Assembly (NCBI GenBank): GCA_964653975.1
Contig: CAZZIG010000039.1
Location: 1-60,928, forward strand
Direction of reading: 5' to 3'
Source of the DNA: an uncultured Acidimicrobiaceae bacterium
Lineage (GTDB): Bacteria > Actinomycetota > Acidimicrobiia > Spongiisociales > ZC4RG35
DNA: 60,928 nt
Shown: positions 4,833-27,456 of the stretch, piece after piece
How the letters are laid out: every line of letters begins with the position of its first letter
How positions within the stretch are numbered: position 1 is the stretch's first letter
The notes under the pieces: generated by a model
Told to the model about the DNA's origin: nothing
The model's database searches: none
What the model saw: the letters and a program-made list of their open reading frames with translations, nothing else
Position numbers and translations under genes: made by a program

Positions 4833-4846
4833 GATGTCTCTCCCGG

Positions 4847-5131: not shown

Positions 5132-5139
5132 GGCTCTCC

Positions 5140-5184
5140 TATACCTTAGGGGGGTATAGTATAATGGGATTGAGTCCTCGTCAA
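5140..5184 (-). promoter_or_regulatory. SigA-type promoter overlapping a CsoR operator
   Basis: Minus strand reads TTGACG (5184-5179), N17, TACTAT (5161-5156). Inverted repeat TATACC-TTAGGGG-GGTATA (5140-5158) with a G-tract matches the CsoR operator pattern. RBS AGGAG at 5140-5136. Confidence 0.85.
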
Positions 5185-5187
5185 CCC

Positions 5188-5811
5188 CTAGCCACAGTCC
5201 CTCGTGCTCGAGCCCGCGAAGGTGGGCACCGGTCGCTGCTCAGCCTCGATCGCGTCAGCGGCGGGACCGTTGGTGGCGATGTCGCCGATGAGCCAGTCCA
5301 TCTCCCTGATCTCACGTCTCTGCGCCTCAGCGATCGCAACCGCCAACTCACACACCCTCACGTCTTCGATCTCGGCGCGCTCGCTGGTGAGGATCGCTAT
5401 CGAGTGATGAGGGATCATGGCCCGCATGTAGGACCCCTCCTGGACCGTGGTCTGGCTGCGAACCAGCCACGTGGCCAACGCGAAGACGACGATCGCTCCG
5501 ACGACGATGGCCAGATTCGCCCTCCGGTCCCGGTACATCCCGAGCATGAAGCCGAGCATGACGACCGCCATGCTCGAGCCCATGAGCAATGTCATGAACA
5601 ACCGGGTCTCACTCCAGCGGACATGGTCCAACTCGAAGGTGTTGAGATAGGTGACGGCGTACATCACGACCATTGCGGTGACGATCATGCCGAGAAAGCG
5701 CCAATAGGGGTTGGCAGGGCTCTCCTCGTGGCTTCCAGCCTCCGGTGTCGTCCTCTCGTCTTTGCCATCACCTCTGCTCATCGGGTCTCCACGCTCGTGA
5801 TGATGGATCAC
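5188..5811 (-). CDS. DUF305 family protein with N-terminal TM helices (copper-cluster associated)
   Basis: RAMIPHHSIAILTS double-His motif, EAQRREIREM; three hydrophobic N-terminal segments. Start may be the ATG at 5781. Confidence 0.85.
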   Translation of the reverse strand: MIHHHERGDPMSRGDGKDERTTPEAGSHEESPANPYWRFLGMIVTAMVVMYAVTYLNTFELDHVRWSETRLFMTLLMGSSMAVVMLGFMLGMYRDRRANLAIVVGAIVVFALATWLVRSQTTVQEGSYMRAMIPHHSIAILTSERAEIEDVRVCELAVAIAEAQRREIREMDWLIGDIATNGPAADAIEAEQRPVPTFAGSSTRDCG

Positions 5812-10913: not shown

Positions 10914-13900
10914 TTGCCCCAGGTCAGCAGACGTCAGTTCATCAAGATCGCAGGTGGTGCCGGTCTGGCCGCGATCTCGGGGGTGCTCGACCTCGAACTG
11001 TTGGCTCTCGAAGCCTTCCCCGGTGTCGACAACCCCCTCCTCACCTACCCCAACCGGGGTTGGGAGCAGATCTACAGAGACCAATATGCATATGACAGCA
11101 GTTTCACGGTCATCTGTGCCCCCAACGACACCCACATGTGTCGGCTCCGGGCCTTCTCCCGCAACGGGATAGTCACCCGTCTCGAACAGAACTACGACGG
11201 GGCCAACTATGCGGATCCCCAGGGCAATACCTCGACCGCACATTGGAACCCCCGGGGCTGTCTCAAGGGGTTCACGCTGCATCGACGGGTCTACGGGCCC
11301 TACCGACTGCGCGCCCCGATGGTCAGAAGCGGCTGGAAGGAGTGGGCCGACGACGGATTTCCCTCCCTCTCGGACGATCCGGACCTGAGAGCCCGGTATC
11401 GGTTCGACGACCGCGGGAACGACACGTTCATCCGGCTCACCTGGGACGAGGTCGACGACTATGCGGCGCGGGGATTGGAGGCGATCGCCCGCACCTACTC
11501 GGGAGACGATGGCCGACGCCGGCTCATCGATGAGGACGGCTATGAGCCCGAGATGCTCGAGTTCTGGGAGGGGTCGGGTGTCCGGACGATGAAGTTCGGG
11601 TCGTCGCTTCCGGTCCACGGTGTGGCGGGCAAGTTCGGGTTGTTCCGGTTCGCCAACATGCTGGCACTCCTCGACGCAGACGTACGCGGCGTGGGACCCG
11701 ATGAGGCGGTCGGCGCCAGAGACTGGTCGGAGTACACGTGGCGGGGAGATCAGGCGCCGGGGTTCCCGTTCGTGCACGGGCTCCAGACCTCGGAAGTCGA
11801 CTTCAACGACCTCCGCAAGAGCCGTCTCCTCATCCAGGTCGGCAAGAACCTGGTCGAGAACAAGATGCCGGAGAGCCATTGGTTCCAGGAGATCATCGAG
11901 CGTGGGGGCAAGATCGTCTCCATCGTCCCCGAGTACGGGCCCCAGTCGTCCAAGTCCGACTACTGGATCCCGGTGCGGGCCGGTCTCTCCGACACCGCCA
12001 TCTTTCTCTATCTGGCCAAGGAGCTCATCGATCGCGACCTCTACGACCTCGAGTTCGTGAAACGATTCACCGACCTGCCGCTCCTCATTCGTCTCGACGA
12101 CCTGACCCGCGTGCACGCCGGGGAGGTCTTCGCCGACCACGGGCCACTGCTCGATCCCGAGGGCCCCAGTTTCACCCTCCACGCCATGACCCCCGAGCAA
12201 TACGAGCAGATCGGCGACAGGGTGGTCAGAGACACCTCGGGTCAACTGCGCGCCATCAGCCGCGAGCACGTCGGAGATCGGCTGGCCGAGGCCGGAGTCG
12301 ATCCGGAGGTCGACTGGCGGGGAACGATCACCCTGGCCGACGGGTCGGAGGTCGAGGTGGCCACGGCGCTCAACCTCTACCGGGAGCATTTGGCCGACTA
12401 CGACGTCGACACGGTCGCCGACATCACCGGATCGCCCAAAGAGCTGTTGGAACAGCTCCTCGATGACGTCGCCACGATCCGGCCGATGTCGATTCAGGTC
12501 GGGGAGGGTGTCAACCACTACTTCCACGCCACCCTCCACAACCGGGCCACCTACATGGTCTCGATGCTCACCGGTCAGATCGGCATCCCCGGCTCGGGAG
12601 TCAGCACCTGGGCCGGCAACTACAAAGGGGGCATCTTCCATGCCGCCCCCTGGTTCGGGCCGGGCGTCGGCGGCTACGTGAACGAGGATCCGTTCAACCC
12701 GCTCCTGTCAGAGACGGACGCCTACGACTTCGACAACATCCACCACTACATCCATGGAGAGGAGACCTCCTACTGGGGCTACGGAGACCGCCCGCTGGTG
12801 GTGGACACTCCTACCGAAGGGCGGAAGGTGTTCACCGGGCGGACCCACATGCCCACCCCGACCAAGGTGCTCTGGTACAACAACGCCAACCTGATCAACC
12901 AGGCCAAGTGGGCCTATCACCTGATCAAGCACACCAACCCCAAGATCGACATGATCGTCGACCAGCAGATCGAGTGGACCGGGTCGGCAGAGTTCGCCGA
13001 CATCGTCCTACCGGCCAACAGCTGGCTGGAGTTCGAGACGCTCGAGATGGGCGGGTCGTGCTCCAACCCGTTCCTCCAACTCTGGAAAGGAGGCATCAGC
13101 CCCCTCTACGACAGCCGAGACGACGTGGCCATCTTCGCCGGTGTGGCGAGGGCCCTGGCCGGGCTCACCGGCGAGCCACGATTCGCCGACTACTTCAAGT
13201 TCGCCAGTGAAGGCCGACCGGAGGTGTATCTCGACCGGGTCCTGAAAGGCTCGTTCACCACCGAGGGCTACACCGTCGACGACATCATGTCGGGCAAATA
13301 CGGTGAGCCGGGCGGGGCACTGATGCAATACCGCACCTACCCCCGCATCCCGTTCTGGGAGCAGGTCAACGACAGTCTCCCGTTCTACACCGACACCGGC
13401 AGGCTGAACGCCTACTGCGACCTCCCCGAGGCCATCGAATATGGGGAGAATCTGATCGTCCATCGTGAGGCGGTTGAGGCCACTCCCTACCTCCCCAACG
13501 TCATCGTCTCCACCAGCCCCTGGATCCGGCCAAACGACTACGGCATCGACCCGGCCGACCTCGACGCCGACCGCCGCCAGGTGCGCAACATCAAGATGTC
13601 CTGGCCCGAGGTCCGCCGCACCGTCAACCCGCTGTTCGAGGAGGGATACCGCTTCCTCTGCCTCACTCCCAAGTCGCGGCACTCGGTTCACTCCTCCTGG
13701 GCGGTCACCGACTGGCACTGGATCTGGAACTCCAACTTCGGCGACCCCCACCGAACCGAGACCCGCATGCCGGGCGTGGGTGATGCCCAGCTCCACATGA
13801 GCCCCACCGATGCCCGCGGTCTCGGATTGGAGAGCGGCGACTGGGTATGGATCGATGCCAATCCCGCAGACCGCCCCTACGTCGGAGCCTCACCCGAAGA

Positions 13901-14378
13901 CCCCTTCTACGAGTCGGCCCGCCTCATGGCGAGGGTGACGTACAACCATTCGTACCCGCCCGGGGTCACCATGATCAAACACGCCTTTTACATGGCGACA
14001 CCGCGGACGGTTCGAGCACAGGAGAGCCGCGCCGACGGGCGCGCCCTGGCCGACACCGGCTACCAGTCGAGCTTCCGTCACGGCAGCCAGCAGTCGCTCA
14101 CCAGAGGCTGGGCACCGCCAATGCACCAGACCGACAGCCTCTTTCACAAGCGAGCCGCGGGGATGGGCTTCATCTTCGGCTTCGACGTCGACAACCACGC
14201 CATCAACACCGTCCCGAAGGAGACTCTGGTCCGGATCACCCTGGCGGAGCCGGGTGGTCTGGGAGGAAGAGGAGTCTGGTCGGGCGCCACGACGGGTCAC
14301 AGCCCGGGCGGCGAGTCGAAGTTCATGCAGCGTTACCTGGCCGGCCAGGTCGTCACCATCAAGGGAGCCGGCACATGA
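10914..14378 (+). CDS. nxrA: Tat-exported type II DMSO-reductase-family molybdoenzyme alpha subunit, anammox/Nitrospira NxrA-like (NXR/periplasmic NAR clade)
   Basis: TTG start; Tat motif VSRRQFI; FS0 motif C68-x3-D72-x3-C76...C116 (CAPNDTHMC...WNPRGCLKGFTLHRRVYGPYRL); Mo-ligand Asp in TWRGDQ (D279); GKNLVENKMPE, GEGVNHYFH, WAGNYK, TPKSRHSVHSSW. These match NxrA blocks recalled from Kuenenia/Nitrospira. The gene symbol marks family membership; the substrate is unproven. Confidence 0.88.
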   Translation: MPQVSRRQFIKIAGGAGLAAISGVLDLELLALEAFPGVDNPLLTYPNRGWEQIYRDQYAYDSSFTVICAPNDTHMCRLRAFSRNGIVTRLEQNYDGANYADPQGNTSTAHWNPRGCLKGFTLHRRVYGPYRLRAPMVRSGWKEWADDGFPSLSDDPDLRARYRFDDRGNDTFIRLTWDEVDDYAARGLEAIARTYSGDDGRRRLIDEDGYEPEMLEFWEGSGVRTMKFGSSLPVHGVAGKFGLFRFANMLALLDADVRGVGPDEAVGARDWSEYTWRGDQAPGFPFVHGLQTSEVDFNDLRKSRLLIQVGKNLVENKMPESHWFQEIIERGGKIVSIVPEYGPQSSKSDYWIPVRAGLSDTAIFLYLAKELIDRDLYDLEFVKRFTDLPLLIRLDDLTRVHAGEVFADHGPLLDPEGPSFTLHAMTPEQYEQIGDRVVRDTSGQLRAISREHVGDRLAEAGVDPEVDWRGTITLADGSEVEVATALNLYREHLADYDVDTVADITGSPKELLEQLLDDVATIRPMSIQVGEGVNHYFHATLHNRATYMVSMLTGQIGIPGSGVSTWAGNYKGGIFHAAPWFGPGVGGYVNEDPFNPLLSETDAYDFDNIHHYIHGEETSYWGYGDRPLVVDTPTEGRKVFTGRTHMPTPTKVLWYNNANLINQAKWAYHLIKHTNPKIDMIVDQQIEWTGSAEFADIVLPANSWLEFETLEMGGSCSNPFLQLWKGGISPLYDSRDDVAIFAGVARALAGLTGEPRFADYFKFASEGRPEVYLDRVLKGSFTTEGYTVDDIMSGKYGEPGGALMQYRTYPRIPFWEQVNDSLPFYTDTGRLNAYCDLPEAIEYGENLIVHREAVEATPYLPNVIVSTSPWIRPNDYGIDPADLDADRRQVRNIKMSWPEVRRTVNPLFEEGYRFLCLTPKSRHSVHSSWAVTDWHWIWNSNFGDPHRTETRMPGVGDAQLHMSPTDARGLGLESGDWVWIDANPADRPYVGASPEDPFYESARLMARVTYNHSYPPGVTMIKHAFYMATPRTVRAQESRADGRALADTGYQSSFRHGSQQSLTRGWAPPMHQTDSLFHKRAAGMGFIFGFDVDNHAINTVPKETLVRITLAEPGGLGGRGVWSGATTGHSPGGESKFMQRYLAGQVVTIKGAGT

Positions 14379-14626
14379 AGGCCGTCGAGTCCGGCGACCC
14401 GTTCGAGCTGGTCGGGGTGAGACGTCAGGTGGAGCCCAACCTCGAGACCGACACCGAGACCGCCCGTTGTCTCATCGAGGAGTACGCACTCGCCGGTTTC
14501 GCCGCCAACGAGATCCTGGACCTGTTCGCTTCGCCCGCCTATGGGATGCCAAACGCGATCTACCGGCGACGTGGGGCCGAGTTCGTGACCGGTCTCGTCG
14601 CGGGGGTCTTCGGAGGAGTGCGATGA
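14375..14626 (+). CDS. Small conserved-looking hypothetical protein (83 aa) between alpha and beta
   Basis: ATGA overlaps at both ends. [15 protein letters not shown]...[39 protein letters not shown]. It is the 3' part of track ORF 13847..14626. Confidence 0.8.
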
Positions 14627-15849
14627 CCACTGTGTACAACTGGCAGTTGGGGCGGGACATGGAATACCGCTTCGAGGGCGGCGGTGCCCGACGGCAGTTC
14701 GCCGCGGTGTTCAACATCAACCGCTGCATCGCCTGCCAGACCTGCACCATGGCCTGCCGGTCGACCTGGACCTTCTCCCCCGGGCAGGAGCTGATGTGGT
14801 GGAACAACGTCGAGACCAAGCCCTACGGCGGCTATCCCCGCCATTGGGACGTCAAGACGCTGGAGCTACTCGAGGGCGCCAACCCCGGTGGCCAGGTGTG
14901 GGACTACGGAGAACAGAGCGAAGATGCCCCCTACGGCACCTTCGAAGGCAAGACGATCTTCGAGGCCACCGACCCAGCCGAGCGCGCCGTCGGATACCTG
15001 CCGAGCGACGACGAGTGGAAAGCCCCCAATCGCTTCGAGGACCACGGGACCAAATGGTCGGCCAACGGAGCCAGTCTTCCCGAGCACGAAGGTTGGTTCT
15101 TCTATCTGGCGCGGATCTGCAATCACTGCACCTATCCGGCATGTCTCGCCGCCTGTCCCAGGAACGCCATCTACAAGCGACCGGAGGACGGGATCGTCCT
15201 CATCGACCAGGAACGATGCCGGGGATACCGCAAATGCGTCGAGGCCTGCCCCTACAAGAAGTCGATGTACCGGCCGACCACCGGGACGTCGGAGAAGTGC
15301 ATCGGGTGCTTCCCCCGCCAGGACGGCGACGACCCCCTGACCGAGGGACATCCGATGGAGGCCCGCTGCATGACAGCCTGCGTCGGCAAGATCCGAATGC
15401 AGGGGCTGGTCGATGTCGAAGCCGACGGAACCTGGACCGAAGACCCCGACCACCCCCTCTACTACCTCGTGCACGAAGAGCAGGTGGCCCTGCCCCTGTA
15501 CCCCCAATTCGGCACCCAGCCCAACATCTACTACATCCCGCCGCGCTGGGTCCCCCGCGACTATCTCCATCAGATGTTCGGCCCGGGTGTCGACCAGGCC
15601 ATCGAGCGCTACACGCGTCCCTCCCGCAGACTCCTCGCAGTCCTGCAGCTGTTCCGGGCCTCACAACAAATCATCTTCTCGTTCGACGTGGAGGAGGGGG
15701 AACAGGTGGGCGAGGTCCAGGTGGGTGGCGAGTCCTATGAGATCTTCAACGACACGGCCGTCGGATTCGACGCCGACGGACACGAGATCGTGCGCATCAG
15801 GGTCGAAGAGCCACTCCACGAGCGGCCCTTGAAGGTGAACTCGATATGA
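14623..15849 (+). CDS. nxrB: Fe-S beta subunit, NxrB/NarH-like (three 4Fe-4S plus one 3Fe-4S)
   Basis: [71 protein letters not shown]...[16 protein letters not shown]. 408 aa from the ATG at 14623. Confidence 0.93.
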
Positions 15850-16589
15850 CCCTCACAGCCAGTCGCGAGCACGATCTCATCCAGGCGACGGGCCGTTTCG
15901 GCATCTACTCCCTCCTGGCGACCGGATTCATGCTCCCGACCGAGAGTCGGCTCGAAGTCGTGGCATCGACGCTCCTCCCCGCGGTCTCCAAGCTCGACGT
16001 GGGAGTGGAGGTGGGCTCAGCGATCAAGCGTGTAGCAGAAGCGATGCCCCTCGGCGTCGGGAGCCTGCGCGGACACTTCATGGAGTTGTTCCCGCCGATT
16101 GCCTCCCAGGATGCGCCGGGATACGAGACCGGCTATCGAGGAGACGGGATCTTCCAGCAGTCGGCGATCATGGCCGACATCGCCGGCTTCTACCGGGCGC
16201 ACGGGCTTCAGTCCGGCGGCACCGAGCGGGAGCGTCCCGACCACATAACGGTGGAGCTGGAGTACATGGCCTTTGTCGCCAAGAAGGAGGCACTGGCGCT
16301 CCGCGAAGGCTCTCCGGACCACGCCGCCATCTGTCGGGACACGGCCTCCTCTTTCCTCCGCGACCACCTCGGCTGTTGGGGCCCCGCGTTCGGTCTGCGG
16401 GCACGCGCCGTCTCCTCGAGCCCCTGGTACTGGTCACTCGGTGAGTTGCTGGCACTGTGGATCGAGTGGGAGTTGGACGCCATGGGCATCGAGCCAGTGG
16501 AGGTCGTGGAGCACCCGCTGCCCCAGGAGCCCCCGGACGATGGGAGCTGTGGTCCCTGCCCGGTCCCCTCGCTCGGAGGTGGGGTATGA
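15846..16589 (+). CDS. TorD/DmsD/NarJ-family maturation chaperone
   Basis: YETGY, MADIAGFYRAHGL, ERPDHITVELEYM, FLRDHLGCW; C-terminal CGPC. Confidence 0.9.
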   Translation: MTLTASREHDLIQATGRFGIYSLLATGFMLPTESRLEVVASTLLPAVSKLDVGVEVGSAIKRVAEAMPLGVGSLRGHFMELFPPIASQDAPGYETGYRGDGIFQQSAIMADIAGFYRAHGLQSGGTERERPDHITVELEYMAFVAKKEALALREGSPDHAAICRDTASSFLRDHLGCWGPAFGLRARAVSSSPWYWSLGELLALWIEWELDAMGIEPVEVVEHPLPQEPPDDGSCGPCPVPSLGGGV

Positions 16590-17587
16590 GACTTCTCAGG
16601 TCGAAGCTCGCATTGTTCGTAGCCCTGGCTTTGATCTCCGTGCTACTGCGCGTCGCCGACGCCAACCCTGCGATGGCCCAGAACCCGTCGATCGGGGTTT
16701 GGAGCGTCGCCACGGCGCCACCGATGGACGGCTCGGCTCCCGAATGGCAGTCGATTCTGCCGGTCTTTCTGCCGACCACCTCACAGCAGGTGGCGCTGCC
16801 GATGGGAGGAGGCGCGATCGAACGTCTCGGGGTCAGGGCAGTGCATCACGACGAGCGTCTCTACGTGATGCTGGAGTGGTCGGACGGGACACTGGACGAG
16901 AGCACCGCTCTCCACGAGACGTTCACTGATGCTGCCGCCATCCAGTTCCCCGCCGAGGCGGGAGTCGAGGTACCCGCGATCTGCATGGGACAAGCAGACC
17001 AGGCGGTCAACATATGGCATTGGCGCGCCGACCAGCAGAACGACCCACCTGCTCTGTCCGAGCATGGCTACGTCGACTCCTATCCCTCCACCGATGACCT
17101 CTATTTCACGGCGCGCGCGGCAGGAAATCCCCTGGCGCGTGCCGACGGCCGCACCGGTGTGAGCAATCTCGTCGCCGGAGGTTTCGGCACACTCGAAATC
17201 GCCGACCAGGGGGGTCTCGACGGCCACGCCGTCCATGAGGGCGGTCGCTGGATGGTGGTGTTCACCAGACCCTTGGCCGCCGCGAGCGACATGCAACCCA
17301 CGATCGCCAACGGCCCCGTCGACGTCGCCTTCGCGATTTGGGACGGCAGCAAGCAAGAGCGAGACGGAATCAAGTCGGTGTCGGCGTTCACCCAGCTTCA
17401 GGTGACCCCAGAAGATCCGCCCCGGCGACCCGTGGCGGCCACCGCCGATTGGCCAGGGTACACGCCGTCCAACCCGATGCTCGTCGTCTCATATGGCTTC
17501 ATCGCATTGTTGGTTGCGGGGGCCTTGCTGATCTGGCGATACATGCGGAAAGGTGAAGGGGGCTCGGATGCCGAGAGTCCCGCATAG
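16586..17587 (+). CDS. Heme-b gamma subunit (EbdC/NxrC-like DOMON fold) with signal peptide and C-terminal TM anchor
   Basis: ATG at 16586 (ATGA overlap). Signal peptide; RLYVMLEWSD, FTDAAAIQFP, PAICMGQ (Met ligand), VNIWHWRA, W.VVFTRPL, AFAIWDGS.QERDGIKS (Lys ligand); TM MLVVSYGFIALLVAGALLIW followed by RYMRK. Confidence 0.85.
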   Translation: MRLLRSKLALFVALALISVLLRVADANPAMAQNPSIGVWSVATAPPMDGSAPEWQSILPVFLPTTSQQVALPMGGGAIERLGVRAVHHDERLYVMLEWSDGTLDESTALHETFTDAAAIQFPAEAGVEVPAICMGQADQAVNIWHWRADQQNDPPALSEHGYVDSYPSTDDLYFTARAAGNPLARADGRTGVSNLVAGGFGTLEIADQGGLDGHAVHEGGRWMVVFTRPLAAASDMQPTIANGPVDVAFAIWDGSKQERDGIKSVSAFTQLQVTPEDPPRRPVAATADWPGYTPSNPMLVVSYGFIALLVAGALLIWRYMRKGEGGSDAESPA

Positions 17588-18530
17588 CCCGGTTCCGCGG
17601 CACCTGACCGGCTGGCTCGGAGTCGTCGTCCTCGCCGAACTGGTGCTCTTGCGAACCGGCACCCGCACCCTCATCCACATCCCGGGGCTGGGTCGCTTCG
17701 ACACTTCCGTGGGGCTGCTGAGCGAGGTGGGGCGACTCGCCTACTACCTGGCAGTGGTGCTGGTCGTGGCTCTACTGGTCTACCTCGGCCACTCGATGTG
17801 GGTTAGCGGCACCATGGCGGGGAGGGCCCTCGCCGGCCTGGTTTCGGTCTTCGTCGTCACCGCGCTGCTGGGACGAGTGGGCGTGGTCACCGCCTCGACG
17901 GTTGCTTGGGTGTCGGTGGCGGTGTTGGTCGCGGTGTTGGCGATCACCTGGGGCGGGGTGCGCAGCGTGCCGGTGGCCGCCTTCGTCGCCGCCTCGGTAT
18001 CGGCTTCGTGGAGCATCCTGGGACAGGGGCTCGGGCCGGGGATCACGGGACGCACCGTGGACATCGCGGTGGTCGTCGCCGAAGGTCTGTTGCTCCTGGC
18101 ATTCGTGACCACTCCCCTCCTCGTCATCGGGAAGCTGACGACACCGGCCATGTTCGCGGGAATGGCCGCTTTCGCCCTGGTAGGCGCGGGATTCTGGGCG
18201 GGTGGCCCGACCCTCTCCATCCTGACGCTTTGGAATCTCGGAGTGCCCGGCTGGTTCTCCCCGATCGTCTACGGGCTCGCCTTCGGGGGCTTGGTGGTCG
18301 CCATATGGTCGGCCTCGACCCGCCGCCAGGTCGCGATCACCACCGGTCTCCTCCTGATGGTCGCCGGAGGGGTGGGGCCGATCAGCACCTATCAAACCGC
18401 CCTGGCCTTGACCGCGGTGACCCTCATCGGGCTGGCTGTAGACGCGCGCGACATCGACTCGGTTCCCGGAAGCGAGCAAGAGGCGTCAGACCCCTCCGAG
18501 TCGAGCAGGGACCTCCTCTCTCTCACGTGA
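17568..18530 (+). CDS. Polytopic membrane protein of unknown function, last gene of the molybdoenzyme operon
   Basis: 320 aa, almost entirely hydrophobic (about 9-10 TM segments); overlaps the gamma gene by 20 nt; no family motif recognised. Confidence 0.75.
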   Translation: MPRVPHSPVPRHLTGWLGVVVLAELVLLRTGTRTLIHIPGLGRFDTSVGLLSEVGRLAYYLAVVLVVALLVYLGHSMWVSGTMAGRALAGLVSVFVVTALLGRVGVVTASTVAWVSVAVLVAVLAITWGGVRSVPVAAFVAASVSASWSILGQGLGPGITGRTVDIAVVVAEGLLLLAFVTTPLLVIGKLTTPAMFAGMAAFALVGAGFWAGGPTLSILTLWNLGVPGWFSPIVYGLAFGGLVVAIWSASTRRQVAITTGLLLMVAGGVGPISTYQTALALTAVTLIGLAVDARDIDSVPGSEQEASDPSESSRDLLSLT

Positions 18531-18720: not shown

Positions 18721-19809
18721 GTGACCCGCACAACGGTCAGTTCCGACGATCAGGCGGTCCTTGGCCGTCTCTCCCGTCTCGACCGGTTCCTCCCGGTTTG
18801 GATCGGACTGGCCATGGCGGCCGGGCTTCTCCTCGGAACCCTGCGACCCGACCTGAACGACTGGCTGGACACGGTGGAGATCGGAAGTGTGTCACTACCC
18901 ATCGCCATTGGGCTGCTGGCGATGATGTACCCGGTGCTCGCCAAGGTCAGGTACTCCCAGATCGGCGAGATCGCCGCCGATCGCAAGCTCCTGGTCAACT
19001 CGCTGATCCTCAACTGGCTGCTCGGGCCGCTGCTCATGTTCACCCTTGCCTGGCTCATGCTGCCCGACCTACCCGAGTACCGCACCGGTCTCATCATCAT
19101 CGGGCTCGCCCGATGCATCGCGATGGTGCTCATCTGGAACGACATCGCATGTGGGGACCGGGAAGCGGCAGCTGTGCTCGTGGCGATCAACTCGGTGTTT
19201 CAGATCGTGGCCTACTCATTGCTTGGGTACTTCTACCTCGAGCTACTGCCAGACTGGCTGGGGCTGGACACCGCGAGTCTCGACGTGTCGATGTGGGAGA
19301 TCGGAAGGATCGTCCTCATCTTCTTGGGTATCCCCCTGGTGGCCGGGTACCTGACCCGTCGTTGGGGGGAACGGTCCAGAGGCGTCGAGTGGTACGAGAC
19401 CAGGTTCATCCCCAAGATCGCTCCCTGGGCGCTCTACGGTCTGCTCTTCACAGTTGTCATCCTCTTCGCCCTCCAGGGCGAGACCATTACCAGCCAGCCG
19501 CTCGATGTCGTGCGCATCGCTCTCCCGCTCCTGGCGTACTTCCTCCTGATGTGGGGGCTCGCCTTTGCACTGGGGCTGAGACTCCGGCTGTCGTATCCGA
19601 AGAACACTGCGATGAGCTTCACCGCGGCGAGCAACAACTTCGAGCTGGCGATCGCCGTCGCCATCGGGGTGTTTGGCGTCACCTCGGGTGAGGCCCTTGC
19701 CGGAGTCGTCGGACCGCTGATCGAGGTACCAGTGCTCGTGGGGCTCGTCTACGTCGCCCTCTGGGCCCGCCGTCGCTTCTACCCCAGCCAAGACCCGGAG
19801 GGACCATGA
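18721..19809 (+). CDS. acr3: Acr3 family arsenite efflux transporter
   Basis: LSRLDRFLPVWI, GLLAMMYPVLAKV, GLARCIAMV, SNNFELAIAVAI, VGPLIEVPVL. Confidence 0.95.
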   Translation: MTRTTVSSDDQAVLGRLSRLDRFLPVWIGLAMAAGLLLGTLRPDLNDWLDTVEIGSVSLPIAIGLLAMMYPVLAKVRYSQIGEIAADRKLLVNSLILNWLLGPLLMFTLAWLMLPDLPEYRTGLIIIGLARCIAMVLIWNDIACGDREAAAVLVAINSVFQIVAYSLLGYFYLELLPDWLGLDTASLDVSMWEIGRIVLIFLGIPLVAGYLTRRWGERSRGVEWYETRFIPKIAPWALYGLLFTVVILFALQGETITSQPLDVVRIALPLLAYFLLMWGLAFALGLRLRLSYPKNTAMSFTAASNNFELAIAVAIGVFGVTSGEALAGVVGPLIEVPVLVGLVYVALWARRRFYPSQDPEGP

Positions 19810-19934
19810 GCTGGATCGAGCACCGGAATCGGTCACACAGCAGTTGACGGTCACAGTGACTTCAGACTAATATTCTCGATCGTTTCAACTTTTTGGATCG
19901 TTGATCGACGAAGTCGTCTAGAGGAGGACCGTCT

Positions 19935-20513
19935 ATGTCTGAAGTCGTCTTGTTTCATCATGCTCTGGGGTTGACTCCCGGTGTGCTCTCCTTCGCTGAT
20001 GCGCTGAGAGAGGCGGGACATACCGTGCACACACCCGACCTATTCGAAGGGCAGACCTTTCCCACCATCGACGAGGGAGTGGCCCATGCCGGGGAGATCG
20101 GCTTCGGCGAGGTGATGGCACGCGGAGATCGTGTGGTCGAGGGATTGCCTGCTGGGTTGGTCTATATGGGATTCTCCCTTGGCGTGATCCCCGCCCAGCG
20201 TCTGGCCCAGACACGTGCCGGTGCCCGCGGCGCGATCCTCTGCTACTCCTGTGTCCCGGTGTCGGAGTTCGGTGATGCCTGGCCAAAGGGTGTCCCCGTG
20301 CAGGTGCATGGCATGGACAGCGATCCGATCTTCGTCGGTGAGGGCGATGTCGACTTTGCGAAGGCGCTCGTGGACGAAGCCGAAGATGGAGAACTGTTCC
20401 TGTACTCAGGAGACCAGCACTACTTCGCCGACAGCACATTGCCGTCGTATGACGCCGATGCCGCCGCCCTGATGACGAAGCGGATCCTCGATTTCCTTTC
20501 CAGAGTCGGTTGA
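19935..20513 (+). CDS. Dienelactone hydrolase family protein
   Basis: VVLFHHALGLTPG, GFSLG nucleophile elbow, DSDP, HYFAD; RBS GAGGAGG. Confidence 0.88.
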   Translation: MSEVVLFHHALGLTPGVLSFADALREAGHTVHTPDLFEGQTFPTIDEGVAHAGEIGFGEVMARGDRVVEGLPAGLVYMGFSLGVIPAQRLAQTRAGARGAILCYSCVPVSEFGDAWPKGVPVQVHGMDSDPIFVGEGDVDFAKALVDEAEDGELFLYSGDQHYFADSTLPSYDADAAALMTKRILDFLSRVG

Positions 20514-21020: not shown

Positions 21021-21554
21021 TCAACTCTTCGGTGGCGGGAGCAACGCGACGACACCGGCACTGGCGAGGAGGAGGGCTCCAAATGTGACGGCGGTCCAGT
21101 TGACCTCGTCGCCGAGTTGCCGTCCCGGTTCGGTGACGGTCAAGGATCGAACCTCCAGGTAGGACTCTCCCTGCCGTGCCGGGTCGTGGTATCTCCAAAT
21201 TCCGATGACACGGACCACTGGACCGCGATTCCAGTATCCACCGGGGTGGTCGAGGCTCTTGGCCAGCTCTGCAGGCATCCTCACCGCGATACCCACATTG
21301 GCCCCGACGGGCGACCCTCCTTCCCTCAGTGGCTGGTCGACATAGGCGTCGCCGTTGAGTTGAGTCCACATCGATCCGTCGTCCCGGAACCCGTAGTCCC
21401 CCACCAGCTCTCCCTCAACGGTGATTTCCTCCCCGGCGAGTTCGGTGCCCAGCTCCAAGATCTCGGACACCTGCAACTCCTCGGCCGCCGACGCGGGGAC
21501 GGTGATGAAGAGGAACACAGTGGCCAGGCCGATGACTCGGAACAGTTTTCTCAT
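21021..21554 (-). CDS. Secreted OB-fold-like protein with C-terminal TM anchor (Trk operon accessory)
   Basis: Real start is the ATG at 21554 (ATGA overlap with the trkH stop). Signal peptide MRKLFRVIGLATVFLFITVPASA; EITVEGELVGD...VVRVIGIWRYH..GESYLEV; terminal TM helix. It is the 3' part of track ORF 21021..22244. Confidence 0.75.
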   Translation of the reverse strand: MRKLFRVIGLATVFLFITVPASAAEELQVSEILELGTELAGEEITVEGELVGDYGFRDDGSMWTQLNGDAYVDQPLREGGSPVGANVGIAVRMPAELAKSLDHPGGYWNRGPVVRVIGIWRYHDPARQGESYLEVRSLTVTEPGRQLGDEVNWTAVTFGALLLASAGVVALLPPPKS

Positions 21555-23047
21555 TTGCCCCTCACCCATGCATATACGAACCCCAGCAGCGAGAAGACCG
21601 CGACGAACTCGAGCCGGCCGGCCCACATCTGGACCATGTAGACCAGTTCGAGGAGGATCGGCATCGATGGGTCGGTCACACCCACGGAGAGCCCGACATT
21701 GGCGGAGGCGCTGACCGACTCGAACAGAGAATCTTGGAGGGGAATCCCATAGGCCAGGCCGATGCCCGCTCCAAGAAGGTAGAGAGCCACATAGAGAAGA
21801 GAGATGATCATCACCGATTGAATGAGTGCGGGGGTGAGATGTTTCCGTCCGGACTGGTGGTATGCGGTGCCGACGAGGGCATGCTCGGGGAGAAGGACCT
21901 GTCGGATCTGATTGACGACAGATTTGATGGTGAGGCCGATCCTCAGTGACTTGACCCCACCTGCGGTTGAGGAGCCCATGCCGCCGAGTGCCATCGCGAT
22001 CGCCATGCCCCCAAAGGCGAGTCCGCCCCAGTTCGCCAACTCGGCCGAAGGAACGGTGGAGAAGCCAGTGCCCGTGTGTGCGGAGAGAATCTGGAAGAAG
22101 CCCTGACGGGTCAGGCCGGCAACATCGGAGAAGAGACCGGTGGCAGCCAGACCCAGGAGCGTCAGGACCATCGTGAACCCAAAGGTGGAGAGGATGGTGC
22201 GGGTCTCCAGGTTGGCGAACACACGGCGTCGTGGACCCCGCCACATCGCATAGTGGAGTCCGAAGGACATCGCCCCGGCGACCATGAGCAGACCGGTCAC
22301 GCCTTCGAAGATCGCCGAGTGGTAGTAGCCGATACTGGTCGACTGGGGGGAGAAGCCGCCGGTGTCGAATCCGGCGAAGAAGATCATCAGCCCGTGGAAG
22401 ATCGAGCGGTGGAGTTCAAACCCGAGGACCAACCAGCCGACGAGTCCGAGGGCGGTGACACCGAAGATGAGATGAACCACCGACACGGCCCAGATGAATC
22501 GCGCCGTCGAGGTGACCGATGGAAGGATTCGCTCGTCTCTGGCTTCACCGAAGTACAAAGTGATTCCGCCCGTCCCGGCGAAGATGGTGAGTGCCGCCAG
22601 GATGATGCCCTGACCGCCGAGGAACTGGACGAAGTGTCGCCAGAAGTTGAGCGAAGAGGCGAGGTGGTCGACGTCGCTGAGCAGAGAGAGGCCGGTTGTG
22701 GTCAAACCGGACATGGCATCGAAGAAGGCGTCGAGAGGTCGCCCGAAGTGACCGGAGAGGAGGAGTGGTATCGCTCCGACTATCGGCACGATCAGCCAGG
22801 TCAGGGCCACGACGACCATTCCGTGACTCCAGTCGAGCTCCGACTCCTCGGGGGCGAGCCTCGCCCCCATCACGCCGAGCAAGGCGAAGACCCCGGTCAT
22901 GATGAGGAACGATCCGAACGGGTTCCATTCACGGGCGATCCCCGCCCAGGTCAGCGGGAGGAGACTGGCCGCGGCGAGCACGAGAAAGATACGCCCGATG
23001 TAGAAGCCGATGACTCTGAAATCTTCCCCGACCGGCCGGATCAGCAT
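21551..23047 (-). CDS. trkH: TrkH family K+ uptake membrane subunit
   Basis: Four pore loops (SGLTTTGLS, FDTGGFS, HTGTGFS, SANVGLS), GGMGSSTAGGVKSLR, GRLE. Confidence 0.93.
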   Translation of the reverse strand: MLIRPVGEDFRVIGFYIGRIFLVLAAASLLPLTWAGIAREWNPFGSFLIMTGVFALLGVMGARLAPEESELDWSHGMVVVALTWLIVPIVGAIPLLLSGHFGRPLDAFFDAMSGLTTTGLSLLSDVDHLASSLNFWRHFVQFLGGQGIILAALTIFAGTGGITLYFGEARDERILPSVTSTARFIWAVSVVHLIFGVTALGLVGWLVLGFELHRSIFHGLMIFFAGFDTGGFSPQSTSIGYYHSAIFEGVTGLLMVAGAMSFGLHYAMWRGPRRRVFANLETRTILSTFGFTMVLTLLGLAATGLFSDVAGLTRQGFFQILSAHTGTGFSTVPSAELANWGGLAFGGMAIAMALGGMGSSTAGGVKSLRIGLTIKSVVNQIRQVLLPEHALVGTAYHQSGRKHLTPALIQSVMIISLLYVALYLLGAGIGLAYGIPLQDSLFESVSASANVGLSVGVTDPSMPILLELVYMVQMWAGRLEFVAVFSLLGFVYAWVRGK

Positions 23048-23048
23048 C

Positions 23049-23189
23049 TCAGAGAATCGCCAGGATCAGCGCTGACGTGAGCCATGCTACGGCGGCTAGG
23101 GCCAGGACGATCAGAGCCTCGACGACGAACATCGCCAACCCTCCGGCCAGCCCGTCGAAGCTCAACCACTTGCGGTCTCGGTCAGTCAT
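23049..23189 (-). CDS. 46-aa single-TM membrane peptide
   Basis: MTDRDRKWLSFDGLAGGLAMFVVEALIVLALAAVAWLTSALILAIL*. ATGA overlap with the trkA stop; ends 1 nt before the trkH ATG. Below the ORF-track cutoff. Confidence 0.7.
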   Translation of the reverse strand: MTDRDRKWLSFDGLAGGLAMFVVEALIVLALAAVAWLTSALILAIL

Positions 23190-23848
23190 TTCTTACGGCC
23201 GTTCTTCTGTCCCAGGGCGGCGCGGACCTCGTTTTCGAGTTCAACGCTGCTCACCGCAGTCACCTGGTCGCCAGGATGGAGAATCGTCATGGCCGTCGGC
23301 ACTCTGACCTCGTCACCCCTTACATTCGCTACCAGGAGCGCTCCCTTCGGCAGTCTGAGCTCGGCAACGGGTCGTGGTTCGAAGTTCGGGGAAATGTCGA
23401 TTTCGTAGACAGAGATCTCGCCTCTTCCGAGCAGAGTGACGTGCCGGAACTCGGGCACTTCCACTTCTCGTGAGATGAGTGTGGCCATGACATCGGTCAC
23501 CGCCACTACCGGTATGTCGAGGGCTTCAAAGGTGGGACGATTGAGCGGATTGTTCAGCCGCGCCAGAACCTGGCTTGCCCCCAACGTCGAGGCCAACTGA
23601 CAAGCCACGAGATTGACCTCGTCGAGTCCGGTAACCGCCAACACCCAATCGGCCCGCCCGGCGTCGGCCGCCTTGAGCAATCGAATGTCGGTACCGTCAC
23701 CCTCGAGTACCAGGACCTTGGATTCGTCGGTGAGCGACTCTGCGTGACCATGTGCTTCCTCGATGACGGTGACGACATGTCCGCTCTTGTGGAGCTCACG
23801 TGCCAGATACGACCCGACCTTGCCTCCTCCGATCAAGACGACTCTCAC
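23186..23848 (-). CDS. trkA: TrkA family RCK/NAD-binding subunit (copy 2)
   Basis: MRVVLIGGGKVG, GDGTD, AVTGLDEVNL; TrkA_C domain. Confidence 0.92.
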   Translation of the reverse strand: MRVVLIGGGKVGSYLARELHKSGHVVTVIEEAHGHAESLTDESKVLVLEGDGTDIRLLKAADAGRADWVLAVTGLDEVNLVACQLASTLGASQVLARLNNPLNRPTFEALDIPVVAVTDVMATLISREVEVPEFRHVTLLGRGEISVYEIDISPNFEPRPVAELRLPKGALLVANVRGDEVRVPTAMTILHPGDQVTAVSSVELENEVRAALGQKNGRKK

Positions 23849-24507
23849 CGACGATCGTCCTTGACTGCGAGATAGCGGCGGATCTTCTTCCGAGCTCCAC
23901 TGCGAGCTGCGGCCACGACCAGATCGCCTAGGGCGAGTGCAAAATCGTCGTCCGGTATCAACGTCCGGTGACCCCGGTGGACGGCGGCCACTCGCAAGTC
24001 ATCTCGAACCTCGAGATCAGAGACAGGTAGCCCGGCGCCCTCGGGTCCAATGACCATCTCGACTATCTCGACATCGCCCCCGGAGAACGTCACGTGGTAG
24101 CTGAACTCCTCTCTGACGATTTGTTCGTGGATGACTTTCGAGGTGAGCTTCGCTCCGGGCACGAACTGGACGTCCAGCGCCCGGTAGGCGTCTTCGCGGG
24201 CGGGGTCGTCGAGACGAGCGATCGTCTTCGGCACTCCGAAAACCCGCTTCGCCACCTGGACTGCCATCGCGTTGGCGTTGTCGGAGTCAGTCGCCGCCAC
24301 GAAGGCGTCCGCGAACTCGATCCCGGCTTCGCGAAGCAGCCGGACGTCGTATCCGAGGCCCTCGTGGGTCGTTCCGTTGAATGTCGAGCCGAGACGATCG
24401 AAGACCCCAGGCCGATTATCGATCACCGAGACGTCATGGCCTTCCTCGGACAAGGTCAGGGCAAGGTCACTTCCCACCCGCCCACAACCGGCGATGACGA
24501 TCCTCAT
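23845..24507 (-). CDS. trkA: TrkA family RCK/NAD-binding subunit (copy 1)
   Basis: MRIVIAGCGRVG, AATDSDNAN, IARLDDP; TrkA_C domain. Confidence 0.92.
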   Translation of the reverse strand: MRIVIAGCGRVGSDLALTLSEEGHDVSVIDNRPGVFDRLGSTFNGTTHEGLGYDVRLLREAGIEFADAFVAATDSDNANAMAVQVAKRVFGVPKTIARLDDPAREDAYRALDVQFVPGAKLTSKVIHEQIVREEFSYHVTFSGGDVEIVEMVIGPEGAGLPVSDLEVRDDLRVAAVHRGHRTLIPDDDFALALGDLVVAAARSGARKKIRRYLAVKDDRR

Positions 24508-24719
24508 CGGCGTCTTCCTCTGATTCGTGTCTTCGTGACCATCTCATCGACCGTCGACTCCTCGACGAGCGTGAGCGGGAGTTGATCGGGAGTGTCAGGC
24601 CGCCATTCGTTCCGTAGAAACACATGAGCAATATCTGATCCTCCGGGAAGACGAGCAGGTCCCAGGTATTCGTGGAGGATCCCCTCGACTCGATAGCGGA
24701 GGCCGATGAACAAATTCAT
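24504..24719 (-). CDS. Hypothetical 71-aa protein leading the Trk operon
   Basis: Its stop overlaps the trkA start (ATGA); no family recognised. Confidence 0.5.
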   Translation of the reverse strand: MNLFIGLRYRVEGILHEYLGPARLPGGSDIAHVFLRNEWRPDTPDQLPLTLVEESTVDEMVTKTRIRGRRR

Positions 24720-24808
24720 CTGGCTCCTGACCGCTGTGCGGGCGGTATGTGGACACCTCGTGCATCCATATGCACCTGTCTAGATCGGGGCCGGCGAAAT
24801 CAGCGCCG

Positions 24809-24848
24809 TCTTGACGATCCCCTAGCGCGAAAGCTCTGATTCTTGATG
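24809..24848. promoter_or_regulatory. Direct repeat TCTTGA(C/T)G, candidate KdpE site in the trk/kdpD divergent region
   Basis: TCTTGACG (24809-24816) and TCTTGATG (24841-24848) start 32 bp apart, about three helical turns. The KdpE assignment is inference. Confidence 0.35.
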
Positions 24849-24873
24849 GGCCCATGACAGGTGAGCGAACACG

Positions 24874-27456
24874 ATGGATCGCAAGCCGTCGATGGGGGTT
24901 AGCGTCGCGTGTATGAGCCGAGGCAGGCTGCGTGTGTTTCTCGGGGCTGCCCCGGGTGTCGGCAAGACATTTGCCATGCTCGAGGAAGGCCATCGTCTGC
25001 AAAGGGAGAGGCGTGACGTTGTCGTGGGTTTCGTCAGCACCCACGATCGTGCTGACGTGTCCGATCTCCTCGAGGGTCTCGAGGTAATCCCCCCGCTGTC
25101 CTCTAGAGACCACGGTGACGCAGGTGGAGTCATGGATCTCAACGCTGTCCTCGCCCGGGCGCCACAGGTCGTGTTGGTCGACGAGCTCGCCAGGAGCAAT
25201 CCCTCGGGTTCGGCGTACGAGACACGTTGGGACGAGGTCGAAGAGCTTCTCGAGGCCGGAGTCGACGTACTGACGACTCTCAACGTGCAGAACCTGGAGT
25301 CGATGAATGACGTCGTATACGAGATAACCGGTGTCAGAGAGACCGACACCATCGCCGATGATCTCGTCCGTCAGCGAGCCGAAGTAGAGCTGGTCGATCT
25401 CACCCAGGAGGGCATTCAGGAGAGACTCACCGCTGGAAAGATCTATCCGGCCGAGGCGGTTGACGCCGCCCTGGCCAACTACTTCCGGCCAGGAAACCTC
25501 TCCGCGCTACGTGAGCTGGCCCTGTCCTGGACGGCGGATCGGGTAGACGAGACCCTCACCGAGTACCGACTGATGCACGGGATAGAGCAGCCGTGGGAGA
25601 CCAAGGAGCGAATCGTCGTTGGGCTCTTGGCTGCCGAAGGTGCCGATGTGATAGTCCGCAGGGCGGCGCGAACCGCGTTGAGGTCCCGCGCTGAACTGAT
25701 CGGGGTCTTCGTGCGGCCCACCGCCGGTCTCGATGACGACGAATCCCGGCATCTCGGAGACCTGAGAGGCCTGCTCGTGAGATTGGGCGGGTCATACCAC
25801 GAGGTGGTCGGTGACAACACTGCCGACGCGGTGGTTGCCTTCGCCAAAGCGGAGAACGCCACCCAAATCGTCTTGGGAGCCTCACGACGCCCTGGGCTGA
25901 GCGAGTGGCTCGGACGCTCCACGGTACGGCGGGTGATCAGAGACTCGGGAACCATCGAAGTTCACGTCATCTCCTATCAGGCAAGCCGACCCGCCCGTCG
26001 ACGAAGACCGCCCCGGCGGAGCGCTCTAAGCCTACGACGGAGGCTCCTCGCCTGGACCGCAGCAACACTCGGCTTGCCCGTATTGACGTTGCTGCTTCTC
26101 TCCCTGCGCGGCCAGATCGCTCTCGAGAACGTGCTCCTCGTCTACCTGTTGGCCGCGGTAGCGATTGGCGTCGTTGGGGGCGCTCTACCTGCGGTCGGAA
26201 GCGGGGTCGCAGGCTTTCTCCTCGCCAACTGGTATTTCACCCCTCCCTTCTTGACATGGAAGATCGCAGACGTCAGTCACCTCTTCTCTCTCTTCGCCTT
26301 CCTTCTCGTCACCTCATCAGTGGGTCTTCTCGTGGGCAACGCCACACGACGAAGCGTCGAAGCCCGCAGAGCGCGTGCCCAAGCTGAAGCGCTGGCAGCA
26401 ACCACCACCTCGGTCCATCCACAGCTCGCAGAACAGGCTTCTGGGTTGACGGGACGGATAAGGGATGTCTTCGCCATGAACGCCGCCGCTGTCCTGCACC
26501 GATCCGACGACGGCTGGGAACAACTCGCCGCAGTCGGCGCTATCGAGCTGAGTCACCCCGACGATGCCAGCGAAGTCATCCCACTGACCGACGACACGAT
26601 CCTCGCCCTCCACGGCGGCAGTCTCACCGGCGACGACCGCAGGATGCTCAGAGCATTCGCGGCCCAGATGGCCCAGGCGCTCGAACGGGAGAAACTCGAG
26701 AAAGAAGCAGCGGCTGTAGAGGCAATGGCCGAGACCGACCGTCTCCGAACCGCCCTCCTTAATGCCGTATCCCACGACCTACGAACCCCACTAGCGACCA
26801 TCAAGGCATCGGTCACCAGTCTCCTCGAAACCGAGGTCGCCTGGTCTCCTGACCAGACCCAATCATTCCTGGAAGTCATCCTCGAGGAGACGGAACATCT
26901 CAATCGAGTCGTGGGGAGACTCCTCGACGCCAGCCGCATCCAAGTCGGGGCCGTGCATGTCTTCTATGCCTCTGTTGGTTTGGACGAGGTGATCTCCTCG
27001 GCACTGTCTGGTCTCGCCGCCGTGGAGAACCGCGTCGTGGTAGACGTTGCCGACGACCTACCACCGGTGCATACCGACCCTGCGCTTCTCGAACGTGTCG
27101 TCGCCAATCTCATCGAGAACGCCCTCACCTGGTCGCCTTCGGATCACGATGTGCGAGTCAGCGCAGGTGAGGTATCGGGACGCGTCGACCTGAGGATCAT
27201 CGATCGCGGTCCGGGAATCCAGCCCGACCAAAGAGAGACCATCTATCAGCCATTTCAGAGGCTGGGGGATTCCCCGAAGGGAAGCGGCGTCGGACTCGGC
27301 CTGGCGGTAGCCCGCGGCCTGCTCGAGGCGATGGACAACGAGTTGCTCATCGAAGACACGCCAGGAGGAGGGACCACCATGGTGATTGGCTTCAGACCCG
27401 CACCACTCATCGATGCCCCGGTCGGAGTTCTGTCTGAAATCGCAGCTGATGACTGA
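24874..27456 (+). CDS. kdpD: KdpD sensor histidine kinase
   Basis: GRLRVFLGAAPGVGKT, VLVDELA, TTLNVQNLES, NYFRPGNLSALRELAL, Usp domain, four TM helices, SHDLRTPL, DRGPGI, GLGL. Likely start 24913. Confidence 0.95.
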   Translation: MDRKPSMGVSVACMSRGRLRVFLGAAPGVGKTFAMLEEGHRLQRERRDVVVGFVSTHDRADVSDLLEGLEVIPPLSSRDHGDAGGVMDLNAVLARAPQVVLVDELARSNPSGSAYETRWDEVEELLEAGVDVLTTLNVQNLESMNDVVYEITGVRETDTIADDLVRQRAEVELVDLTQEGIQERLTAGKIYPAEAVDAALANYFRPGNLSALRELALSWTADRVDETLTEYRLMHGIEQPWETKERIVVGLLAAEGADVIVRRAARTALRSRAELIGVFVRPTAGLDDDESRHLGDLRGLLVRLGGSYHEVVGDNTADAVVAFAKAENATQIVLGASRRPGLSEWLGRSTVRRVIRDSGTIEVHVISYQASRPARRRRPPRRSALSLRRRLLAWTAATLGLPVLTLLLLSLRGQIALENVLLVYLLAAVAIGVVGGALPAVGSGVAGFLLANWYFTPPFLTWKIADVSHLFSLFAFLLVTSSVGLLVGNATRRSVEARRARAQAEALAATTTSVHPQLAEQASGLTGRIRDVFAMNAAAVLHRSDDGWEQLAAVGAIELSHPDDASEVIPLTDDTILALHGGSLTGDDRRMLRAFAAQMAQALEREKLEKEAAAVEAMAETDRLRTALLNAVSHDLRTPLATIKASVTSLLETEVAWSPDQTQSFLEVILEETEHLNRVVGRLLDASRIQVGAVHVFYASVGLDEVISSALSGLAAVENRVVVDVADDLPPVHTDPALLERVVANLIENALTWSPSDHDVRVSAGEVSGRVDLRIIDRGPGIQPDQRETIYQPFQRLGDSPKGSGVGLGLAVARGLLEAMDNELLIEDTPGGGTTMVIGFRPAPLIDAPVGVLSEIAADD

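Follow-up and report, generated by a model that had tools for sequence, protein, structure and literature searches.

An undescribed polytopic membrane protein of 320 amino acids (aa), referred to here as X, is encoded at the end of an operon for an exported molybdoenzyme in an uncultured Acidimicrobiaceae bacterium (contig CAZZIG010000039.1 of GenBank assembly GCA_964653975.1, whose 60,928 nucleotides, analysed as a whole, are called the window). X is new: it is conserved and confidently folded, it has no family assignment, and it is the sole universal membrane partner of this enzyme clade. The gene is real and conserved, and its obligate linkage to the enzyme is close to certain. The genes upstream of it encode the catalytic subunit alpha, the iron-sulfur (Fe-S) subunit beta, the assembly chaperone delta and the heme-b subunit gamma. 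X is tentatively seen as the fifth, membrane-integral component of an outward-facing molybdoenzyme of the nitrite oxidoreductase (NXR) or nitrate reductase (NAR) type in Acidimicrobiia and Chloroflexota, an assignment that attracts slightly more doubt than confidence. Judged from sequence, X is probably a physical subunit or partner of gamma. The window sequence comes from a soil metagenome, the sequencing runs that contain it being soil metagenomes or runs of unspecified type, and its close relatives are metagenome-assembled genomes of Acidimicrobiia.

An earlier note on this DNA, made from the letters alone, had described gamma and a 320-aa hydrophobic protein at 16586-18530; both genes are found there, on the forward strand. 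The ATG of X is preceded by GAAGGGGG, the gene overlaps the end of gamma by 20 nucleotides (nt), and its G+C content at third codon positions (GC3) is 0.85. A word-indexed search of 90%-identity clusters returned 123 matches at E <= 1e-3, all of them named 'hypothetical' and all without Pfam domains, and a profile search of 1.84 billion representative proteins returned 428 clusters at 50% identity. Among the best 150 of these 428 clusters, the full-length matches have about 290-395 aa and the others are fragments, each being matched in one stretch. One homologue (P0088) is labelled 'Acidobacteria bacterium'; a sequence that looks very similar by eye is present in an Acidimicrobiia locus (L015), and hence the label is probably a binning or labelling error.

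There is no known family to which X could be assigned by sequence or by fold. No Pfam or NCBIfam model matched X or any of 30 diverse homologues, and the family profile found nothing among the sequences of the PDB even at E = 10. X has about 11 hydrophobic helices, and the AlphaFold2 model, built on an alignment of 31 sequences, is all-helical with 12 helices, a predicted local distance difference test (pLDDT) score of 88.9 and a predicted template-modelling score (pTM) of 0.86. A Foldseek search of the PDB with this model gave a best E of 0.41 and template-modelling scores (TM-scores) below 0.3. The top matches, which include the membrane domains of CydDC and other ABC exporters, alpha-pore toxins, an aquaporin and an FNT channel, were set aside as noise at E >= 0.4 and TM-score < 0.3. 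An internal repeat was sought by comparing the N-terminal with the C-terminal half in hhalign, with a negative result. Likewise, no description of X was found in a search of the literature accessible without subscription.

Linkage of X to the operon

The distribution of X was scanned with two X motifs in the genomes of 185,579 species, each represented by a single genome, a search that highly divergent copies in other phyla, comparable to that of locus L124 below, could escape. The scan yielded 64 loci, all from Actinomycetota (Acidimicrobiia or other) or Chloroflexota (Dehalococcoidia, Anaerolineaceae, Tepidiformaceae, Limnocylindria, Thermoflexaceae and others), and no homologue outside these two phyla. 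Both Actinomycetota, with the Acidimicrobiia, and Chloroflexota are usually regarded as having no outer membrane. The gene order alpha-beta-delta-gamma-X is kept in every one of the 63 loci that have upstream sequence, and the Joint Genome Institute (JGI) gene calls for two further contigs agree with it (Fer4_11, Nitrate_red_del, EB_dh, X). Beyond the operon genes there is no conserved neighbour, the commonest being a MobB gene (17 loci). In the reverse test, 80 metagenome loci were fetched through beta alone; 50 of them have at least 2.6 kb downstream of beta, and X is present in 46 of the 50. The distance from the gamma stop to the X start, taken over 112 loci, has a median of -4 nt, does not exceed 20 nt in 94 of them and reaches 74 nt at most. 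X is translationally coupled to the gamma gene. As X has never been seen apart from the operon and matches no known family, the suggestion of the earlier note that it forms a new membrane module of this alpha clade is well supported.

The four of these 50 loci that are without X are L106, L141, L143 and L144. Locus L106 (contig WBZR01000599.1), whose beta nests in the X-positive clade, encodes alpha, beta and delta and has lost both gamma and X from this arrangement. A small divergent clade is formed by L141, L143, L144 and L124. Two of these, L141 (5107-6570) and L143 (8859-10232), encode a gamma anchored by a transmembrane (TM) helix and then a polytopic protein of 457-487 aa with a weak match to NnrS (PF05940), MobB standing between the two in L143. 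The NnrS-like proteins were tried as relatives of X and ruled out (hhalign probability 0.2%). This putative heme-copper protein at the position of X in sister loci suggests a slot for a membrane redox partner. In L144 gamma is soluble and the contig ends 286 nt further on. L124 (13010-13966) has a very divergent copy of X, which retains ELVLLR..SR...HIP, LWTFG and SYQ and is useful for defining the minimal conserved core of the protein. A gene related to the NnrS-like ones is also seen in L048, about 3 kb downstream of X (~13500-14450).

About 16 loci, mostly of Chloroflexota, have a COX1-like membrane protein upstream of alpha, and the window is without it. In L032 (611-1924) it has 437 aa and gives a weak match to COX1 (PF00115). 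An apparent fusion of gamma and X, a 560-aa open reading frame (ORF) in L051 (9215-10897) of Candidatus Amarobacter glycogenicus, was rejected as a frameshift of the long-read assembly, the true C-terminus of gamma being in another frame. Similar breaks are also present in L052 and L101.

Conserved residues of X and the anchored gamma subunit

Residue conservation in X was scored over 231 homologues, in addition to the smaller alignment of 31 sequences. Five residues of the first motif stand out, E24, R29, R33 and P39 being 99-100% and H37 96% conserved. The near-invariant N-terminal set also includes L28 and T32, and gives the pattern ELxxLRTxTRTxIHIPG at the end of TM1. Four further conserved sites follow along the chain (Table 1), and Y59 and Y60 are at least 90% conserved in the 31-sequence alignment only. 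The AlphaFold model has a 12-residue helix at 213-224. Its invariant residues (Glu, Arg, His, Trp, Tyr and Gln) persist down to about 30% identity over the two phyla, and also in the divergent copy of L124. The earlier note had counted just two His in the protein; there are four (6, 12, 37 and 75), and the count holds for the membrane part, where H37 and H75 are the sole ones, H75 not being conserved. Cys is absent. With one conserved His and no Cys, X is not a di-heme cytochrome b of the NarI type and not an Fe-S protein.

The family-averaged loop charges are strongly positive at the N-terminus and after TM2, TM4, TM6 and TM9 (net sum of the five segments +7.4), and the alternate loops have a low net charge (+1.8). 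By the positive-inside rule, the N-terminus and the loops L2, L4, L6 and L9 are predicted to be cytoplasmic. The predicted topology would put the Arg-rich stretch 29-56 on the outer face and E24 and E172 in the outer leaflet, on the same side as the exported enzyme.

The best relatives of gamma in the PDB are NxrC (7B04_C) and EbdC (2IVF_C), and it also matches the CbsA model TIGR03154 (E = 2e-8). The Met of AICMG and the Lys of DGIKS, which the earlier note took for the axial ligands of the heme, do align with Met108 and Lys201 of EbdC, and likewise with their Met and Lys counterparts in Kuenenia NxrC. The C-terminal anchor that it proposed is also borne out, and all 63 gammas encoded ahead of X have a hydrophobic helix (19-mer) at the C-terminus. 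The linker between heme domain and helix follows the pattern PEDPPRR..DWPxYxPxNP in Acidimicrobiia-type gammas, where its mean pairwise identity of 67% is on par with that of the heme domain; in the Chloroflexota type the linker identity is 32%. The TM helix has an identity of 27% in Acidimicrobiia-type and 45% in Chloroflexota-type gammas, as against 61-68% for the heme domain.

Possible roles of X

The enzyme that X accompanies belongs, as far as its sequence tells, to the periplasmic NXR branch of the type II dimethyl sulfoxide (DMSO) reductase family, and its alpha-beta-delta-gamma part is an ordinary member of it. The alpha subunit matches NxrA of Kuenenia stuttgartiensis (7B04_B) over its full length (residues 4-1149 against 3-1146) with 1524 bits, a score that far exceeds those for perchlorate reductase, ethylbenzene dehydrogenase and NarG, and it carries the twin-arginine (Tat) signal SRRQFIK. 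The NxrA match and the twin-arginine signal together argue for an outward-facing NXR of the Nitrospira/anammox type or an NXR-like nitrate reductase. The enzyme may be nitrite-oxidising or nitrate-reducing, the sequence being compatible with either direction.

The likeness to the periplasmic NxrABC of Kuenenia, Nitrospira and Nitrospina (PDB 7B04) extends to the NxrA-type alpha, the Tat signal, the four-cluster beta, the TorD/NarJ chaperone and the EB_dh gamma with Met/Lys ligands. Unlike the anchored gamma, Kuenenia NxrC (322 aa) is soluble, ends about 14 residues past the Lys motif and has no C-terminal helix. For the known periplasmic NXRs, cytochromes c and a bd-like protein have been proposed in this place (PMC3578206). 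TM-anchored NxrC has already been described for the NxrC candidates of Nitrospira and Nitrospina, Nitrospina has been said to need 'an additional membrane anchor', and the anchoring and respiratory wiring of periplasmic NXR is an acknowledged open point even for these two genera (PMC3578206). An anchored gamma is not in itself new, and some sister loci have the unrelated NnrS-like protein in place of X.

Apart from X, the window encodes no respiratory membrane component. As the earlier note had it, genes for NarI, NrfD, a Rieske protein, cytochrome b and cytochrome c are all missing. Outside the operon nothing in the 61-kb window looks respiratory: CxxCH is absent from all of its coding-like ORFs, and its other polytopic proteins are assigned to FtsX, MurJ, Na/Pi, MFS, ABC permease, P-type ATPase, ACR3 and TrkH.

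With X as the fifth component, alpha and beta would be exported by Tat and dock on gamma, which its C-terminal helix would hold at the outer face of the membrane. X would lie beside this anchor with E24, R29, R33, H37, R56, E172 and W222 (possibly also Y275 and Q276) in the outer leaflet, facing the heme domain of gamma. The most likely task of this site would be electron transfer between the high-potential heme b with its Met/Lys ligands and a carrier in the membrane, for which menaquinol/menaquinone is the most plausible candidate. X would in that case be a functional analogue of the hemeless anchors DmsC, PsrC and NrfD, although its electrons would go to a heme and not to an Fe-S cluster. 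That X reacts with quinones at all is plausible but doubtful, and a shade more doubtful is the fuller proposal that it is a previously unrecognised type of cofactor-free quinol/quinone-reactive subunit which wires the heme-b (EB_dh) subunit to the menaquinone pool. If menaquinol is the donor, the enzyme would act in the direction of nitrate reduction; as release and uptake of protons would both take place on the outer side, the nitrate-reduction step alone would build no membrane potential.

Several known membrane links resemble this arrangement in part. The DmsC, PsrC and NrfD family comprises polytopic anchors without cofactors, which bind menaquinol through conserved His/Glu near the outer face and pass its electrons to the enzyme. 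X is like them in its make-up, having no heme ligands and an invariant Glu and His (also Arg, Tyr and Trp) in the predicted outer leaflet. However, no Pfam, NCBIfam or Foldseek PDB match places it in the NrfD/DmsC family, and whereas those anchors touch the Fe-S subunit directly, X would serve a heme-b subunit that is anchored on its own. NarI of the cytoplasmic NarGHI takes the same logical place as X, being the membrane link of a Nar/Nxr-type enzyme to quinol. It crosses the membrane with five TM helices, and four His coordinate its two hemes. X differs from it in its approximately 11 helices, its one conserved His and the lack of a NarI-family match in X and 30 homologues.

Parallels to the pair of gamma and X also come from archaea. 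CbsA of the Sulfolobales (cytochrome b558/566) is an outward-facing, EB_dh-related mono-heme b protein, comparable to gamma with its match to TIGR03154. It is membrane-anchored, and its Sulfolobales hosts are without an outer membrane. CbsA is encoded beside CbsB, a hydrophobic uncharacterised protein (PMC5461723). X is like CbsB in being polytopic and heme-free and in having as its gene neighbour an anchored heme-b protein of the EB_dh-like type (63 of 63 genome loci and 46 loci selected through beta). No NCBIfam model matched X at E <= 10; the presence of a CbsB model in that library is unverified. CbsAB, unlike gamma and X, is part of a bc1-analogous complex and not of a molybdenum (Mo) enzyme. 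Similarly to the NnrS-like protein of the sister loci, the CbsA/CbsB pair suggests by analogy, and does not prove, a slot for a membrane redox partner. Archaeal pNar, too, is an enzyme of the NarGH type that Tat exports to the outer face of cells with a single membrane, and it has a membrane-anchored EB_dh-like heme subunit. The operon described here shares with pNar both the anchored heme subunit and the outward NarGH-type enzyme. The wiring of pNar relies on Rieske/cytochrome b genes in its operons; the window has no such genes, and X fills the sole membrane slot.

Several points weigh against X as a fifth subunit with such a role. Its predicted topology has the positive-inside rule as its single basis, and X has neither ligands for a redox cofactor nor similarity to known quinone-binding subunits. 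The poor conservation of the TM helix of gamma speaks for a generic anchor more than for a dedicated helix-helix interface. In the Chloroflexota loci with a COX1-like protein upstream of alpha, that protein may be the true redox partner. Finally, if nitrite is oxidised in vivo, the electrons arrive at about +0.4 V, which excludes menaquinone as the acceptor and leaves X in need of another role. X would in that case more likely be a dock toward membrane-anchored cytochromes or an oxidase.

There is an unlikely alternative in which X is a passive dock or scaffold for the gamma-anchored enzyme, or couples it to, for example, a membrane-anchored cytochrome c/oxidase supercomplex. X would then have no electron-transfer or quinone site of its own, and the heme of gamma would pass its electrons to a protein encoded elsewhere. 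Synteny and translational coupling would suit any stoichiometric partner, and the lack of cofactor ligands in X, the COX1-like protein in about 16 loci and the transfer of electrons to cytochromes, not quinones, by known periplasmic NXRs (PMC3578206) all favour a dock. Against it, the buried invariant Glu, Arg, His, Tyr and Gln found over two phyla resemble an active or binding site, and no candidate acceptor is conserved near the operon. Somewhat less likely than a dock is a dedicated factor for the maturation or sorting of gamma, either an intramembrane (Glu/His-type) peptidase or transpeptidase for the linker, TM helix and basic tail, or a protein delivering heme b to the exported apo-gamma. 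Although the C-terminus of gamma, with its conserved linker, generic TM helix and basic tail, resembles a sorting signal, the gamma tails of the two phyla share no cleavage-type motif, yet the key residues of X are invariant, and cleavage of the anchor would lose the enzyme in a cell without an outer membrane. The strict one-to-one adjacency of X and gamma would also agree with a maturation factor, but the soluble EB_dh gammas of diderm bacteria are not known to need an X-like protein for receiving heme b. ELxxLR in X loosely recalls EExxxR of CPBP proteases, and one of the homologues of X matches a CPBP NCBIfam model, very weakly (E = 0.077). However, ELxxLR stands alone, as the CPBP motifs FxxxH and HxxxN/D are absent from X and PF02517 matches none of the 31 members scanned; X as a CPBP/Rce1-like glutamic intramembrane protease was accordingly rejected.

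It is improbable that X is a transporter or channel (for nitrate/nitrite, molybdate or protons) that serves the enzyme. An outward-facing active site requires no transport of nitrate or nitrite, X has no similarity to transporter families and no internal repeat, and it is linked to gamma specifically, co-varying with the TM anchor of gamma. These facts stand against two short helix-turn-helix elements with conserved motifs in the model (213-231 and 255-276), which are frequent in channels, and against the membrane-embedded Glu and outward-facing Arg. The chance that X is a random open frame or an unrelated neighbour is negligible: GC-rich DNA does yield many long spurious ORFs, but this explanation is refuted by hundreds of homologues, the invariant residues, the GC3 of the gene, the confident fold and the synteny fixed over two phyla.

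The remainder of the locus and the meaning of X for its hosts

The features of the operon are collected in Table 1. In alpha, residues ~66-76 (window ~11110-11140) read ICAPNDTHMC, i.e. C-x3-D-x3-C, whereas the first Fe-S (FS0) motif of NarG-type enzymes at this position is H/C-x3-C-x3-C. An Asp would thus seem to be a ligand at FS0, as in Nitrospira/anammox NxrA. The beta subunit shows 70-95% identity over the related loci. The small ORF between alpha and beta, for which no Pfam match was obtained, is kept in 126 of 144 related loci by tblastn, X-less loci among them; it belongs to the operon, which thus has six genes and not five.

Table 1. Coordinates, in the window, of the operon genes and of the sites named in gamma and X
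Feature	Position	Strand	Matches and remarks
alpha, 1154 aa, Tat-exported catalytic subunit with molybdenum-bis(pyranopterin guanine dinucleotide) (Mo-bisPGD), Nitrospira/anammox NxrA type	10914..14378	+	7B04_B, PF00384, PF10518, TIGR03479, Tat signal
83-aa ORF between alpha and beta	14375..14626	+	ATGA overlaps at either end
beta, 407 aa, four-cluster Fe-S protein	14626..15849	+	TIGR03478 (269 bits), PF13247
delta, 247 aa, NarJ/TorD-type assembly chaperone	15846..16589	+	PF02613, TIGR03482
gamma, 333 aa: Sec signal, EB_dh heme-b domain, linker, C-terminal TM anchor	16586..17587	+	PF09459 (113 bits), TIGR03477 (166 bits)
gamma, Sec-type signal MRLLRSKLALFVALALISVLLRVADANPAMA	16586-16678	+	
gamma, AICMG	16976..16990	+	heme axial ligand Met134
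gamma, DGIKS	17363..17377	+	heme axial ligand Lys263
gamma, linker QLQVTPEDPPRRPVAATADWPGYTPSNP	17393..17476	+	28 residues
gamma, TM anchor, hydrophobic helix MLVVSYGFIALLVAGALLIW	17477..17536	+	followed by basic cytoplasmic RYMRKG
X, 320-aa polytopic membrane protein	17568..18530	+	undescribed family
X, motif 1 ELVLLRTGTRTLIHIPG (E24, R29, R33, H37, P39)	17637..17687	+	end of TM1 and start of the conserved outer loop
X, GRLAYY (G55, R56)	17730..17747	+	start of TM2; G55 96%, R56 95% (231 homologues)
X, E172	18075..18089	+	membrane-embedded Glu in TM6; 98% conserved
X, motif TLSILTLWNLGVPGW (LWNLGxPG)	18210..18254	+	short helix and turn; L221, W222, G225 99-100% conserved
X, GGVGPISTYQT (GGxGxISTYQ)	18366..18398	+	short helix, turn, last TM; G268 98%, Y275 96%, Q276 99%

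Other genes of the window were noted beside the operon. Directly after X (18721-20513, forward strand) come an ACR3/SBF-family transporter and a dienelactone hydrolase, neither of which is kept in related loci. At 21551-27456 there are genes resembling, by eye, TrkH, two copies of TrkA and a KdpD-like sensor kinase. A metal-resistance cluster on the reverse strand (2775-5811) consists of a His-rich P-type ATPase (685 aa), a 94-aa regulator that is CsoR-like by eye and a DUF305 membrane protein.

The X family merits a name, and the domain databases should receive a model of it. X is a concrete, testable candidate for the link of a periplasmic-type NXR to the membrane, and this over two phyla that are abundant in soil, sediment and wastewater. 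It would help to decide whether the 'nxrA/narG-like' genes of Acidimicrobiia and Chloroflexota in metagenomes stand for nitrate respiration or for nitrite oxidation. If the quinone-reactive role of X is true, the anchored gamma together with X would be a third route, besides NarI and the cytochrome-c relays, by which Nar/Nxr-type molybdoenzymes are linked to the respiratory chain. Such a route would be peculiar to bacteria that lack an outer membrane. It would define how the abundant Acidimicrobiia and Chloroflexota of soil respire nitrate or oxidise nitrite.

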